Shown one piece after another: positions 52,867 to 57,512 of a DNA stretch of 64,000 nt. The first letter of the stretch is position 1; each line of letters opens with the position of its first letter. A program made the translations under genes and the position numbers. Source of the DNA: Clostridia bacterium (GTDB lineage Bacteria > Bacillota > Clostridia > Oscillospirales > CAG-272); contig JAFQOX010000105.1 of the NCBI GenBank assembly GCA_017412045.1, positions 43,120 to 107,119 on the forward strand. The letters run 5' to 3'. The notes under the pieces were generated by a model. That model saw only the letters and a list, made by a program, of their open reading frames with translations. It was not told the DNA's origin and did no database searches.

Positions 52867-53056
52867 TTCTTCTCCTCCAAATTTCTGAATTATTTATAAT
52901 CAGGCAAAAGCCGAATTATTCGTATCAAGATCGTACGAGAACGATTTCAAAATCGAAAGCGTAATCTGTATTAGTTATTATACTATATATACGAAATTTT
53001 GTCAATATAAATGGGAAAATATATTCATATTTTCCAAAAAATAATTGACTTTTCTA

Positions 53057-53085
53057 TTTACAAATATTTCTTGTTATGCTATAAT
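53057..53085 (+). promoter_or_regulatory. Sigma-A-type promoter of the hydrogenase-maturation operon
   Basis: TTTACA-17 nt-TATAAT (TGc upstream of the -10), about 165 nt upstream of ATG 53252. Confidence 0.55.
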
Positions 53086-53180
53086 AGAGAAGATTCCTGA
53101 CATTAAGCCGCGCGCTGCGTGAAAGGATGCGAACAAATGAAATGATGCCAAAGCAATCTCTTGATTTGGCTCTTATTCTT

Positions 53181-53217
53181 ATGCCGCATCCCGATTCGGG
53201 TGCGGCATTTATGTTTC
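53181..53217 (+). terminator. Leader terminator/attenuator upstream of the hydrogenase-maturation operon
   Basis: ATGCCGCATCCCG-att-CGGGTGCGGCAT followed by TTATGTTT. The upstream GGATGCG (53125-53131) can pair with CGCATCC (53185-53191). Confidence 0.5.
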
Positions 53218-53251
53218 TAAGGAATCCAATCAAAAGAAAGGTAGGTTTGAT

Positions 53252-53512
53252 ATGATGGAAACTCGTGTTGCAGTCATGAGCATTATCGTAGAAAACGGGG
53301 CAGCCGCAGAGCAGATCAACGCTCTCCTGCACGAAAGCGGCGAATACATTATCGGCAGAATGGGCATTCCCTATCGGAAGCGCGGCATCAATATCATCAG
53401 TATCGCGCTGGATGCGCCTCAGAATAAAATTTCCGCTCTGTCCGGGAAGATCGGCAATCTGCCGGGCGTGAGCGTAAAGACCGCTTATTCCGGCGTTTTG
53501 AGCAATGAATAA
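53252..53512 (+). CDS. TM1266-family iron-only hydrogenase system regulator (ACT-like)
   Basis: 86 aa. RVAVMSIIVEN......IN.LLHE....IIGRMGIPYR.RGINIISI..DAP...I..L.GK pattern. Located immediately upstream of hydE/G/F. Confidence 0.8.
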   Translation: MMETRVAVMSIIVENGAAAEQINALLHESGEYIIGRMGIPYRKRGINIISIALDAPQNKISALSGKIGNLPGVSVKTAYSGVLSNE

Positions 53513-54554
53513 GAACGTCTTTGACCTGATCGACAGCCTTTGCACGGAGCGTAGCCTCACCTTATCCGAATATCAATCTCTGATCGACGGCAGAACGCCC
53601 GCACTTGCGGAATACGCCGCAGAGCGCGCTGTACGGGCACGCAAGGAAATCTATGGAAATCAGGTCTTTATCCGAGGTCTGATCGAGATCAGCAACGTCT
53701 GTAAAAACGATTGCCTTTACTGCGGTATACGGAGAAGCAACCGCCGTTGCGACCGTTACCGACTGACAGCAGAAGATATTCTCGGCTGTTGCGCGGAGGG
53801 CTATCGGCTCGGCTTCCGCACCTTCGTTCTGCAAGGCGGAGAGGACGGTTATTTCAACGATGACTTTTTATGCGAGCTTCTGCGAGCGATCAAGGGCAGT
53901 TATCCCGATTGCGCCGTCACGCTTTCCTTGGGAGAGCGCACGCGCGAAAGCTATGAGAAATTACGCGCGGCAGGCGCTGACCGTTATCTCCTGCGCCACG
54001 AAACGGCGGACAAGGCACATTACGAAGCCCTGCATCCCTCGGAGATGTCCTTTGACGAGCGTATGCGCTGCCTTTATGATCTGAAGGATCTCGGATATCA
54101 GGTGGGATGCGGCTTTATGGTGGGCTCTCCGCGCCAGACCTCTGCGCATTTGGCGAAGGATCTGAAGTTCATTGAGCAATTTTCTCCCCATATGTGCGGA
54201 ATCGGCCCCTTTATTCCCCAATCGGATACCCCCTTCGGCAAGGAAAATGCAGGCACTCTGGAGCTGACCTGCTATCTGCTCTCGCTCCTGCGCCTGATTA
54301 AGCCGAATCTTCTACTGCCGTCCACGACCGCGTTGGGAACGATCCACCCCTTCGGGCGTGAGATGGGAATCCAAGCGGGCGCAAACGTGGTGATGCCGAA
54401 CCTCTCTCCGGGCAACGTCAGAAAAAAATACGCGCTTTATAACAATAAGCTCTCCGACGGCTCGGAATCCGCGCAATGCAAAGCCGAACTCGCCTCGAGA
54501 ATGGCATCCATCGGATACGAGGTCGTGACCGACCGCGGCGATATGAAACGATAA
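53505..54554 (+). CDS. hydE: [FeFe]-hydrogenase H-cluster radical SAM maturase HydE
   Basis: 349 aa. Biotin-synthase-like radical SAM CKNDCLYCGIR. In operon with hydG/hydF. Confidence 0.9.
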   Translation: MNKNVFDLIDSLCTERSLTLSEYQSLIDGRTPALAEYAAERAVRARKEIYGNQVFIRGLIEISNVCKNDCLYCGIRRSNRRCDRYRLTAEDILGCCAEGYRLGFRTFVLQGGEDGYFNDDFLCELLRAIKGSYPDCAVTLSLGERTRESYEKLRAAGADRYLLRHETADKAHYEALHPSEMSFDERMRCLYDLKDLGYQVGCGFMVGSPRQTSAHLAKDLKFIEQFSPHMCGIGPFIPQSDTPFGKENAGTLELTCYLLSLLRLIKPNLLLPSTTALGTIHPFGREMGIQAGANVVMPNLSPGNVRKKYALYNNKLSDGSESAQCKAELASRMASIGYEVVTDRGDMKR

Positions 54555-54628
54555 GATTGATTTATCTTTTCAAATTTTCAAAAACATCTAAAGAGGAAGA
54601 GTAATCTGACTCCAAGAAAGGAACAACC

Positions 54629-56086
54629 ATGAAAAATTACAATCCCAAATCCATGAAAGCAGAGGAATTCATTTCCGACGCGGAAATCCTTGATACGCTG
54701 GCGTATGCCGAAGCGAACAAAAACAATCTGCCCCTGATCGAGCAAATTCTCGAAAAGGCAAGACCGCAAAAGACCGCAACGGGACATGTCTGCGCGGGAC
54801 TTACGCACAGAGAAGCCTCCGTTCTGCTTGCGTGCGAGATCCCTGAGGTCACTGAAAAAATTTATCGGATCGCGGAAGAAATCAAGCTTGCCTTCTACGG
54901 CAACCGCATCGTGATCTTCGCTCCGCTCTATCTTTCCAACTACTGTGTCAACGGCTGCGTCTATTGCCCGTACCATCTGAAGAATAAAACGATTCCGAGA
55001 AAGAAGCTGACGCAGGAGGAGATCAAAGCGGAGGTCATCGCGCTTCAGGACATGGGTCATAAGCGCCTCGCGATCGAATCGGGCGAGGATCCCGTCAACA
55101 ATCCCATCGAATATATTCTGGAATGTATCAAGACGATCTACAGCGTACATCATAAAAACGGAGATATCCGCAGAGTCAACGTCAATATTGCGGCTACCAC
55201 GGTAGAAAACTACCGCAAGCTTAAGGAAGCGGGCATCGGAACCTACATTCTTTTTCAGGAAACCTATCACAAGGAAAGCTACGAGCAGCTTCACCCGACG
55301 GGTCCCAAGCACAATTACGCTTATCATACCGAAGCGATGGACAGAGCGATGGAGGGAGGTATTGACGACGTCGGACTCGGTGTTTTGTTCGGGCTGGAGC
55401 TTTATAAATACGAATTCGCAGGACTCCTTATGCACGCCGAGCATCTGGAAGCGGTTCACGGCGTCGGTCCGCATACCATCAGCGTGCCCCGTTTAAAGCG
55501 CGCTGACGACATTGATCCCGATCAGTTCGACAACGGCATCGATGACGAAACCTTTGCCAAAATCACAGCCTGCATCCGACTCGCCGTTCCTTATACGGGA
55601 ATCATCATTTCCACCCGTGAGAACGAGGCGGTCCGCACCAAGCTTCTGAATCTCGGCGTTTCACAGGTTTCGGGCGGATCGAGAACCTCCGTTGGCGGAT
55701 ACGCCAATTATACGGCGGACGAACGCCCACACGATACCGAGCAGTTTGACGTTTCGGATCAGCGCTCGCTGGACGAGGTCGTCCGCTGGCTGATGGAAAA
55801 CGGACATATTCCCTCCTTCTGTACGGCGTGCTATCGCGAGGGCCGTACGGGAGATCGCTTTATGAGCCTCTGCAAATCGGGTCAGATCCTGAACTGCTGT
55901 CATCCCAACGCACTGATGACGCTTTCCGAGTATCTGGAGGACTATGCCTCCGATAAAACCAAGTCCGTCGGATATAAGATGGTGGAAGAAGAGCTTAAGC
56001 GTATTCCCAAAGAAAAGGTGCGCAAAATCGCAGAACAGAATATCGCAGATATTAAAAATTCCAATCGAAGAGATTTTCGTTTTTAA
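54629..56086 (+). CDS. hydG: [FeFe]-hydrogenase H-cluster radical SAM maturase HydG
   Basis: 485 aa. ThiH-like radical SAM CVNGCVYCPY plus a C-terminal cysteine cluster (C..CYR...C). Confidence 0.92.
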   Translation: MKNYNPKSMKAEEFISDAEILDTLAYAEANKNNLPLIEQILEKARPQKTATGHVCAGLTHREASVLLACEIPEVTEKIYRIAEEIKLAFYGNRIVIFAPLYLSNYCVNGCVYCPYHLKNKTIPRKKLTQEEIKAEVIALQDMGHKRLAIESGEDPVNNPIEYILECIKTIYSVHHKNGDIRRVNVNIAATTVENYRKLKEAGIGTYILFQETYHKESYEQLHPTGPKHNYAYHTEAMDRAMEGGIDDVGLGVLFGLELYKYEFAGLLMHAEHLEAVHGVGPHTISVPRLKRADDIDPDQFDNGIDDETFAKITACIRLAVPYTGIIISTRENEAVRTKLLNLGVSQVSGGSRTSVGGYANYTADERPHDTEQFDVSDQRSLDEVVRWLMENGHIPSFCTACYREGRTGDRFMSLCKSGQILNCCHPNALMTLSEYLEDYASDKTKSVGYKMVEEELKRIPKEKVRKIAEQNIADIKNSNRRDFRF

Positions 56087-56101: not shown

Positions 56102-57310
56102 ATGGGATTGCATGATACCGTATCGGCAGAACGCCTTCACATCGGATTTTTCGGAATGCGAAACGCAGGAAAGTCGAGCCTTGTGAACGCGGTCACCGGA
56201 CAGGCGCTCTCCGTCGTGTCCGACGTCAAGGGAACGACGACCGACCCCGTAAAAAAAGCAATGGAGCTGCTTCCGCTCGGTCCGGTCGTGATCCTGGATA
56301 CCCCCGGCATCGACGACGAGGGCGATCTGGGAGCAATGCGGGTGGAAAAAGCCAGACAAGCCCTCGTCAAGACCGATATTGCCGTTCTGGTGGCAGACGG
56401 CGCCGTCGGCTTGAGCGGGGAGGACAAGAAGCTGATCCGACTTTTTGACCAAAAGAAGATTCCCCACATCGTCGCCTTCAATAAGGCGGATCTGGTGCAT
56501 GATCGGGTGACGCTCGGTAAAAACGAAATTTACGTGAGTGCGCTAACGGGTGAGGGCGTTGAAGCTCTGAAGGAAATGCTGGGTGAATTCGGCAAGCCCC
56601 TGCAAAGCCCCAAGCTCCTCGTGCGCGATCTTCTCTCGGCAGGCGATCTCGTGGTGCTGGTAACACCCATTGACGAGTCTGCGCCCAAGGGACGGCTGAT
56701 CCTTCCGCAACAGATGGTCTTGCGTGACGTTCTGGACGCGCACGCGACGGCGATCGTTTGCCAGGACACCGAGCTCGCCCAAACGCTGGAAAATCTTGGG
56801 CAAAAGCCCCGTATGGTCATTACCGATTCGCAGGTGTTCGGTAAGGTTGCGAAAAATACTCCCGCGGATATTCCGTTGACCTCCTTCTCGATCCTGATGG
56901 CGCGCTACAAGGGTGATCTGAAACCGCTGGTGCAGGGCTTTGCCGCCCTGAATCATCTGCAAAACGGCGATAAGATACTGATCTCCGAGGGCTGTACGCA
57001 CCACCGCCAATGCAAGGATATCGGAACCGTCAAAATCCCCGGATGGATCGAAGCCTTTTCGGGTGTGAAGCCGGATTATCGCTTCACCTCGGGCGGAGAA
57101 TATCCCGAGGATCTCAGCGAATACCACGTGATCGTCCATTGCGGCGGTTGTATGCTGAACGAAGCGGAAATGAAGCGCCGTATGGAAAGTGCGAAGGTGC
57201 AGGGCATTCCGATTGTCAATTACGGCATCGCCATCGCAGGTATGCACGGCATTCTGAGGCGCAGTCTGGAGCTGTTCCCCGACGTGCTCGCCTTACTTGA
57301 TACGCATTGA
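56102..57310 (+). CDS. hydF: [FeFe]-hydrogenase maturation GTPase HydF
   Basis: 402 aa. G1 GMRNAGKSSLVNA, DTPG, NKAD. C-terminal CTHHRQC...HCGGC cluster ligands. Confidence 0.92.
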   Translation: MGLHDTVSAERLHIGFFGMRNAGKSSLVNAVTGQALSVVSDVKGTTTDPVKKAMELLPLGPVVILDTPGIDDEGDLGAMRVEKARQALVKTDIAVLVADGAVGLSGEDKKLIRLFDQKKIPHIVAFNKADLVHDRVTLGKNEIYVSALTGEGVEALKEMLGEFGKPLQSPKLLVRDLLSAGDLVVLVTPIDESAPKGRLILPQQMVLRDVLDAHATAIVCQDTELAQTLENLGQKPRMVITDSQVFGKVAKNTPADIPLTSFSILMARYKGDLKPLVQGFAALNHLQNGDKILISEGCTHHRQCKDIGTVKIPGWIEAFSGVKPDYRFTSGGEYPEDLSEYHVIVHCGGCMLNEAEMKRRMESAKVQGIPIVNYGIAIAGMHGILRRSLELFPDVLALLDTH

Positions 57311-57334: not shown

Positions 57335-57375
57335 AAAAAGCCTTGATTCGTTTTTGGAATCAAGGCTTTTTCGTG
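57335..57375 (+). terminator. Intrinsic terminator after hydF
   Basis: AAAAAGCCTTGATTC-gtttttg-GAATCAAGGCTTTTT. Confidence 0.8.
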
Positions 57376-57383
57376 ATTCTTTT

Positions 57384-57512
57384 TATCGCATAGAAATTTG
57401 CGCAGATAGAACCTCGCCGTTTATATCGTTTGGATACAGTCTTAACTGCGATAGGCGAGCACACAGCTTGCAGAGCAAGCAGTTTTCCAGCGGGCGTTGC
57501 CCGCTTTTTTAT
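57384..57512 (+). repeat. Structured intergenic element, copy C
   Basis: TATCGCATAGAAATTTGCGCAGAT..CTCGCC..AACTGCGATA-GGCGAG..GCTTGC-aga-GCAAGC..GCGGGC-gtt-GCCCGC-TTTTTT. Confidence 0.85.

Follow-up and report, generated by a model that had tools for sequence, protein, structure and literature searches.

What switches on and off the genes that mature [FeFe] hydrogenases? To our knowledge, very little is known about the regulation of H-cluster maturation. The question is raised by the leader of an operon found in a 64-kb stretch of DNA from a Clostridia bacterium (the window), in which a TM1266-family gene is followed by hydE, hydG and hydF. The analysed segment (53057-53251) includes the 166-nucleotide (nt) leader ahead of the first gene. 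An initial annotation, made from the sequence alone, had proposed an unassigned terminator/antiterminator leader regulating the maturation operon in cis, a proposal now supported by conservation, by covariation and by the absence of an Rfam match. The sensor itself, a hairpin at 53095-53127, went unrecognised. The leader is best explained as a conserved cis-acting attenuator whose hairpin would be bound by the TM1266 protein in a PyrR/TRAP-like, autoregulatory manner, an explanation that is slightly favoured and given an even chance of being correct. Attenuation by a sensor RNA is a familiar mechanism; the novelty lies in the fold and symmetry of the RNA and in its likely protein partner.

A symmetric hairpin at the start of the leader

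Transcription is predicted to start at ~53091-53093 from a sigma-70-type promoter (53057-53085, + strand) that was already noticed in the initial annotation and that combines TTTACA, a 17-nt spacer and TGcTATAAT (11/12 matches plus an extended TG). The predicted start is only a few nt ahead of a 33-nt hairpin (site 1, 53095-53127, +). In related loci, 8-12 nt usually separate the end of the -10 box from the first C of the motif, so that the hairpin forms the extreme 5' end of the mRNA and its first helix, P1, cannot be longer. P1 pairs UCCU (53095-98) with AGGA (53124-27) and is followed by a 2x2 internal loop of purines (GA 53099-100 opposite AA 53122-23), a central helix of 3 base pairs (bp) between CAU 53101-03 and GUG 53119-21, a second 2x2 loop (UA 53104-05 opposite GC 53117-18) and the helix P2 (AGC 53106-08 with GCU 53114-16) with its closing loop 53109-13. 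The isolated segment 53092-53131 folds to exactly this structure (-10.8 kcal/mol). Both strands of the hairpin read alike (CUGA-NNN-NAAG), which creates a pseudo-dyad with two-fold symmetry.

The upstream regions of 80 genome loci encoding TM1266 relatives, all from uncultured Clostridia, Oscillospiraceae, Lachnospiraceae, Acutalibacteraceae and similar bacteria, share a block positioned directly after the promoter, CCUGA-CAN-NA-AG-[variable stem-loop]-CU-GN-N'UG-AA-AGG. The alignment of 62 sequences (A1) has 83.6% of its cells paired, a value attained by 0/500 shuffles, and slid controls are all ~40% paired. Covariation is found at pair 15-42 (UG 28, GC 12, CG 8, UA 5) and at pair 20-37 (AU 25, CG 25, GC 4). 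The P1 base pairs are invariant (62/62), the internal loops are highly conserved and the P2 loop is variable. R1, the covariance model built from A1, matches upstream of TM1266 in 67/80 genome loci and matches the window once, at site 1 (46.7 bits, E = 8e-10). The hairpin is thus a conserved structured element of the 5' untranslated region with covarying helices, as generally found for riboswitches.

An independent set of metagenome contigs was scanned with the RNA pattern alone (CCTGACANNAAGN{4,30}CTGNNTGAAAGG), yielding at least 120 matching stretches. A TM1266 gene lies within ~100-230 nt downstream in 108/120 of the matches listed. Among the others listed, hydE comes directly downstream in 3, the gene for the S component of an energy-coupling factor (ECF) transporter in 1, and an open reading frame (ORF) with TM1266-like first 14 amino acids in 1; the contig ends too early to judge the downstream gene in 5, and 2 are chance matches inside ORFs that are also rejected by R1. 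When the listed matches are aligned to R1, 92.2% is paired and the covariation is as in A1. The locus with the TM1266-like start (L194, oriented coordinates 353-1167) has a canonical motif and terminator followed by a 232-amino acid (aa) ORF in which similarity to TM1266 is confined to the first 14 residues (MDYRVAVLSIIVEK); it may be a recombination or fusion remnant.

The element has no counterpart among the 4227 families of Rfam 15. At gathering scores the whole window gives 0 matches, hence no tRNA, rRNA or known riboswitch, and with E up to 10 the region 52880-53300 gives only chance-level matches of <=16 bits (IRES_Tobamo, an Enterococcus sRNA, SNORA1). Searches at gathering scores with the leaders of 10 diverse related loci returned no match covering them either. 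Likeness to a hammerhead core (CUGA...GAAA) or to a kink-turn was considered and rejected: the topology does not fit and an Rfam match is absent. The initial annotation had named conservation in orthologous operons, covariation among aligned leaders and an Rfam search among the ways to check its proposal; the leader is conserved, the helices covary and a family match is lacking. No description of the element was found in the literature on hydE/hydG, hydrogenase maturation and TM1266, nor in general or C. difficile riboswitch reviews, a coverage that is incomplete.

Terminator, antiterminator and the second copy at hydG

The 166-nt leader folds more stably than its shuffles (z = -2.9). A predicted intrinsic terminator occupies 53181-53216 (+), with a stem-loop at 53181-53208 (11 pairs, 7 of them G-C, -19.3 kcal/mol) followed by TTATGTTT. 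It has the G+C-rich hairpin and U-tract of intrinsic terminators, the U-rich tract (53209-53216) being interrupted (UUAUGUUU). The hairpin had been pointed out before, and a terminator is present in 167/171 homologous leaders, with a mean of -18.6 kcal/mol.

The segment GGATGCG (53125-53131), given earlier as the antiterminator, is perfectly complementary to CGCATCC (53185-53191), which lies in the 5' arm of the terminator (duplex of -13.1 kcal/mol). This pairing stands; the segment itself is merely the 3' extension of the overlooked sensor hairpin, and the full antiterminator 5' strand (AGGAUGCG, 53124-53131, +) overlaps the 3' strand of P1. The same holds in related leaders, where the last nt of the hairpin (AAGG) and the next 5-10 nt pair with the terminator 5' arm. 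On average, antiterminator segments bind their own terminator arm at -13.5 kcal/mol vs -11.0 kcal/mol for the arms of other loci (p = 4e-15), and at -7.5 kcal/mol after shuffling.

When 132 unique leaders are folded as nascent RNAs that reach the terminator loop, the antiterminator is part of 94% of the minimum-energy folds and P1 of 5%; in a control with the 10 nt after the motif shuffled, the antiterminator appears in 57% of the nascent folds. In the window, the antiterminator replaces the sensor hairpin in nascent RNA reaching 53196, and in RNA extended to the U-tract the antiterminated fold has -41.7 kcal/mol vs -40.0 kcal/mol for the fold with sensor and terminator. The sensor hairpin and the antiterminator exclude each other. 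Readthrough would be the default because the antiterminator dominates the nascent RNA, and since the 3' strand of P1 belongs to the antiterminator, locking of the hairpin should force termination (OFF). An alternative fold that shares a strand with the aptamer, here the P1 3' strand, is what is seen in a riboswitch expression platform. Mutually exclusive terminator and antiterminator, together with a conserved site whose occupation disfavours the latter, are found in attenuation of the PyrR/TRAP type. Two-state thermodynamic modelling of full-length leaders was also attempted and given up for nascent-transcript folding: under simple directional constraints, AGG paired elsewhere and the resulting states could not be interpreted.

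Two further pairings described in the initial annotation exist in the window. The 7-bp helix that could close the leader (GATTCCT 53092-98 with AGGAATC 53220-26, -9.7 kcal/mol) is specific to the window, a helix of <=-9 kcal/mol being found in 6% of leaders vs 5% of shuffled controls. The local hairpin CCAAA/TTTGG (53148-53169, +), enclosed by the antiterminator helix, lies in a spacer of 4-198 nt whose sequence is variable and in which a hairpin is nevertheless common, 59% of the spacers folding at <=-5 kcal/mol. The variation in length and sequence between loci also led to rejection, as improbable, of a leader peptide, for which a 42-aa ORF (53127-53255) ending inside the TM1266 start region had been considered. 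Some leaders (L016 2576-3000, L029 2610-3000 and L035 2650-3000) have inserts of ~300 nt between hairpin and terminator. L016 carries two identical terminator copies ~330 nt apart, while L029 and L035 have TTTGCATT-type repeats.

A second, variant copy of the hairpin is found in the spacer between hydE and hydG (site 2, 54587-54617, +; UCU-AAA-GAG-GA-AGA-(GUAA)-UCU-GA-CUC-CA-AGA). The Shine-Dalgarno sequence of hydG (AAGGA, 54618-54622) is directly 3' of it and the hydG ATG is at 54629. Site 2 folds as drawn (-7.2 kcal/mol) with the Shine-Dalgarno unpaired, and a search for its pairing in alternative folds found none. The site 2 variant is present in 40/96 regions upstream of hydG, with covariation in its central helix (GC 12, CG 5, AU 1, UA 1 at one pair; GC 16, AU 6, CG 1 at the other). 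R1 also picks up copies of this second site among the listed matches of the metagenome set, at 27-34 bits.

These features can be combined in the following working model. The first ~33 nt of the mRNA would fold into the pseudo-two-fold-symmetric hairpin. Without effector the antiterminator would form and the operon would be read through, while effector binding would lock the hairpin, allow the terminator to form and turn off TM1266-hydE-hydG-hydF. At site 2 the bound hairpin would occupy the ribosome landing site and repress hydG translation. The effector is most likely a TM1266 oligomer with the fold of the NikR C-terminal or ACT domain, with a small ligand either bound or absent; this would close a PyrR- or TRAP-like autoregulatory circuit.

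Genes that share the element

The TM1266-family gene of the window (53252-53512, +; 86 aa) encodes the candidate effector or co-sensor. It is followed on the same strand by the genes for the radical SAM maturase HydE (53505-54554; TIGR03956, 556 bits), the radical SAM tyrosine lyase HydG (54629-56086; TIGR03955, 908 bits) and the GTPase scaffold HydF (56102-57310). The four products all score above NCBIfam cut-offs, in agreement with the gene order given previously. Terminator-like hairpins are found at the operon end, 3' of hydF (57335-57371 and 57489-57505). On the other side of the leader, a perfect sigma-70 consensus promoter (TTGACA-17-TATAAT, 52977-53005, - strand) faces away from it, with a YbjN-like gene (PF10722; 52390-52866, -) lying downstream on that strand; this promoter and that of the hyd leader are back to back, within ~80 nt.

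The order TM1266-hydE-hydG-hydF is that of most Firmicutes loci. Distant homologues were reached with the Thermotoga maritima TM1266 sequence (PDB access code 2NZC) and their contigs were inspected. Thermotogae-type, Marinitoga, Coprothermobacter, Cloacimonas and Bacteroidota loci have a related hairpin, an antiterminator and a terminator ahead of TM1266. These distant relatives were first spotted by eye and then confirmed with RNAalifold, which returns the same fold with compensatory changes. Their leaders have the same architecture, with a central helix of 4 bp and other loop letters, as in CCUCCUGA-GGUG-GA-GGGA-aaaa-UCCUGA-CACC-GG-GGGAGGGG; Thermotoga-type strands read CCUGA-NNNN-GR-GGGA. 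The Firmicutes model R1 fails on them (at most 11.7 bits), and the element is absent from two Ignavibacteriae loci inspected. Judged by sequence and predicted fold, the element spans at least five bacterial phyla.

The genes that follow TM1266 differ among these loci. It is hydG in the Thermotogae-type, Marinitoga, Coprothermobacter and Cloacimonas loci and in L206, with hydE further downstream only in some of them. In ~32 loci it is the gene of an ECF S component, in some cases with a group A6 [FeFe] hydrogenase gene immediately ahead. L004 has genes for a FecCD/BtuC-type permease, an ATPase of the ATP-binding cassette (ABC) type and a NifH-like protein, the permease being also seen in L173, while L063 and L078 have an NMT1-type binding protein and a permease. 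In Bacteroidota, TM1266 is followed by genes for a TonB-dependent receptor closest to heme receptors and an EamA transporter, with feoAB adjoining. The link between motif and TM1266 is kept whatever follows; the constant partner of the RNA element is therefore TM1266, not hydEGF.

Several of these loci deserve a closer description. The ECF S component has ~181 aa (PF12822 only, no NCBIfam match) and its gene is the sole one after motif and TM1266 in L006 (3273-3818) and in ~30 other loci, among them L013, L022, L034, L051 and L149; the group A6 [FeFe] hydrogenase gene of L034 and L051 is immediately upstream of it. In the Bacteroidota loci L204, L207, L212 and L213, motif and TM1266 precede the TonB-dependent receptor and EamA transporter genes with no hyd genes in view. 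The best NCBIfam family of the receptor is that of heme/hemoglobin receptors, below cut-off, and feoA-feoB are positioned just upstream of motif and TM1266 in L207, L212 and L213. Some Clostridia loci (L076 3001-4028; L030 and L079 around 3001) encode TM1266 without the leader motif, right after a gene ending in ...LLPRIC, a HypE-like carboxyl terminus. In L076, TM1266 is also right before a NifH-like gene, which suggests that a different metallocofactor cluster uses TM1266 as well.

The regulated genes suggest that the signal is tied to the supply of the H-cluster or of an iron cofactor, and the importers suited to metal chelates among them hint at a cofactor-like signal.

The candidate effector and comparison with known systems

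The TM1266 gene product of the window scores 112.8 bits against the NCBIfam cut-off of 60.8 (TIGR03959), 108 bits for PF21699 and E = 2e-12 with 2NZC. Its AlphaFold model (pLDDT 93) superposes on 2NZC with TM-scores of 0.86-0.88; the next-best structural neighbours are the C-terminal metal-binding/tetramerisation domain of NikR (TM-score 0.80) and then ACT domains. Profile searches matched only PF21699 and TIGR03959, without homology to PyrR (a phosphoribosyltransferase, PRTase) or MtrB/TRAP. The protein has no DNA-binding domain. Residues L26, R36, G38, P40, I49, G65 and G68 are invariant across phyla and H27, K66 and K76 nearly so. Identity is ~35% between phyla, diverging in parallel with the nt of the hairpin loops and with the central helix length (3 or 4 bp). 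Literature searches found no experimental work on TM1266 function; Clostridioides difficile and Thermotoga neapolitana are reported to possess a TM1266 homologue.

TM1266 is a candidate RNA-binding partner only by genomic linkage and RNA symmetry. The association of the element with the TM1266 gene is closer than that with hydEGF, and its effector may therefore be the TM1266 protein rather than a metabolite. This interpretation is favoured because the tie between motif and TM1266 holds in at least five phyla whatever genes follow, because the two-fold symmetry of the RNA suits an oligomer with two-fold axes, and because loop letters and spacer-helix length drift between phyla as the protein does. 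The position of site 2, which adjoins the Shine-Dalgarno sequence without forming pairs with it, and the existence of a "regulator" devoid of a DNA-binding domain argue in the same direction. The invariance of the P1 pairs (62/62) likewise speaks for a protein partner, as does the co-induction in Thermotoga neapolitana under CO2 of the TM1266 homologue, hydG and hydE, up 6- to 7.5-fold together, with the unlinked hydF up 1.3-fold (PMC7039931).

Several observations weigh against TM1266 as the RNA-binding effector. The protein is not markedly basic, R36, K66 and K76 being the only basic residues conserved across phyla. TM1266 consensus sequences sorted by RNA subtype in Firmicutes reveal no protein-RNA co-variation and no discriminating residue, and the conserved positions are occupied alike whether or not a motif lies upstream of the gene. 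In 4 motif loci among the metagenome matches listed, 3 before hydE and 1 before an ECF S component, TM1266 is not in cis. The regulon of biosynthesis genes and several importers resembles a classic riboswitch regulon. We know of no ACT or NikR-C-like domain that binds RNA, nor of RNA binding by any fold of the TM1266 type.

The last three points count in turn for an OFF riboswitch, in which a metabolite or cofactor would stabilise P1, causing termination at site 1 and a block of translation at site 2, and TM1266 would be a regulated ligand-binding or carrier protein. This alternative, the main rival, is possible and falls short of being probable. A conserved structured RNA at the mRNA 5' end, with conserved internal loops, a variable P2 loop, covarying helices and both transcriptional and translational expression platforms, is well accounted for by it, and regulation of hydE/G/F along with four kinds of importer (ECF S component, FecCD/BtuC-type ABC, NMT1-type ABC, TonB-dependent receptor nearest to heme receptors) is typical of cofactor riboswitches. 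Small rod-like aptamers with internal loops exist (NAD+-I, xanthine, THF-II), and the TPP riboswitch before ykoF is a precedent. However, the loop nt and central helix length vary between phyla, which is odd for one fixed ligand pocket, and P1 has only 3-4 bp of invariant sequence. The two-fold symmetry would be unexplained unless two ligands or one symmetric ligand bind, the Shine-Dalgarno at site 2 is in no helix, and the near-obligatory TM1266 downstream in at least five phyla would need a separate explanation. None of the Rfam families matches the leader, hence the ligand class cannot be inferred.

The element clearly senses something, and another trans factor could be what binds the hairpin: a protein such as HydF, HydG or a global RNA-binding protein, a small RNA, or a metal ion, for example Fe2+ in the tandem purine loops. 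Tandem G.A/A.A loops are common metal sites, and the neighbouring genes are iron-related (feoAB beside Bacteroidota loci, TonB, FecCD and NifH-like genes in others). An Fe2+ OFF switch suits iron importers, but the same reasoning would not have it repress maturases that consume iron. TM1266 co-occurs with the element more consistently than any other protein, and no complementary small RNA was seen. Such a factor is improbable. A bolder idea, and a long shot, is that the hairpin, by itself or together with TM1266, responds to an organometallic iron compound made by HydG/HydE/HydF, be it a cofactor or a precursor, with the [2Fe] subcluster and the Fe(CO)2(CN)-cysteine synthon as candidates. One switch would then govern hydEGF, which make the compound, and importers that salvage it from the environment, a task for which the ECF S component, the FecCD/BtuC-type ABC transporter and the TonB-dependent receptor closest to heme receptors may serve. 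The signal could be an H-cluster building block, made or scavenged, because importers of the metal-chelate type share the OFF switch with the enzymes of the [2Fe] subcluster. If true, this would be the first natural sensor of an H-cluster building block and the first evidence of its scavenging by gut and sediment anaerobes. That there is no regulated switch at all, the leader being a constitutive partial terminator or an mRNA-stabilising 5' stem-loop without sensing, is very improbable: only a few nt separate the hairpin from the start predicted for the transcript, and 5'-terminal hairpins can stabilise mRNAs, but a stability hairpin needs no invariant loop nt in >200 loci, no covarying antiterminator overlapping its 3' strand and no second copy at an internal ribosome-binding site.

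For research on hydrogenases, the 33-nt hairpin and its terminator make up a well-defined switch by which maturase levels would be set, and which could find use in anaerobes engineered to produce H2. The element also points to genes that would respond to one signal together with hydEGF, among them those for nitrogenase-like proteins, TonB receptors, ABC transporters and an ECF S component yet to be characterised. If a protein binds the hairpin, the NikR-C/ACT fold would give rise to a new class of RNA-binding attenuation proteins; if a metabolite does, a new riboswitch class would extend over at least five phyla. TM1266 has been annotated as "regulator" for years despite the lack of a DNA-binding domain, and a conserved RNA partner provides a testable target.

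Autoregulatory attenuation by TM1266 would have one of its closest parallels in PyrR of the Bacillus pyr operon. There too, terminator and antiterminator folds alternate, a bound conserved hairpin prevents the antiterminator and leads to termination, the regulator gene is the first after the first attenuator, and more than one site is found in the operon. PyrR has however a PRTase fold, different from the NikR-C/ACT fold of TM1266 whose RNA binding is only proposed here, and the hyd leader RNA shares neither sequence nor structure with the PyrR binding loop, in keeping with the Rfam result. In the TRAP system (MtrB, Bacillus trp) a small ligand-binding oligomer (~75-85 aa) favours the leader terminator, as TM1266 would. 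The hyd system would also resemble it in blocking translation at sites beside the Shine-Dalgarno of other genes and in an RNA symmetry that mirrors protein symmetry. TRAP, a beta-sandwich protein assembled as an 11-mer, recognises 11 single-stranded (G/U)AG repeats, unlike the folded two-fold hairpin of the hyd leader, whose putative protein partner is, in contrast to TRAP, encoded within the regulated operon.

OFF riboswitches such as SAM-I, preQ1-I and TPP before ykoFEDC have in common with the hyd leader an aptamer-like fold at the mRNA 5' end whose P1 3' strand is shared with the antiterminator, the occurrence of terminator and ribosome-binding-site versions, and a regulon of biosynthesis genes and importers. 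In the TPP-ykoFEDC case the first gene, ykoF, even codes for a small ACT-like ligand-binding protein (thiamine/HMP-binding). The hyd hairpin differs from them in its lack of an Rfam match, in a P1 that is very short and invariant, in a pseudo-dyad core that varies between phyla and in its very close association with a single family of downstream genes.

Superposition of TM1266 on the C-terminal metal-binding/tetramerisation domain of NikR gives a TM-score of 0.80 at 21% identity, and the invariant TM1266 residues L26-H27, R36, G38 and P40 map, by hand and not by superposition, to the helix and hairpin bearing the NikR nickel ligands. TM1266 lacks the ribbon-helix-helix DNA-binding domain of NikR as well as the His/Cys nickel ligands (one conserved His, no Cys), and any nucleic-acid target would be contacted by its ACT-like domain itself. 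The order of leader RNA element and terminator, regulator gene and structural genes is also that of the BglG/SacY/LicT systems. Their RAT element overlaps the terminator and its binding prevents termination, whereas the hyd element overlaps the antiterminator and its binding should cause termination, in a system without CAT or PRD domains.

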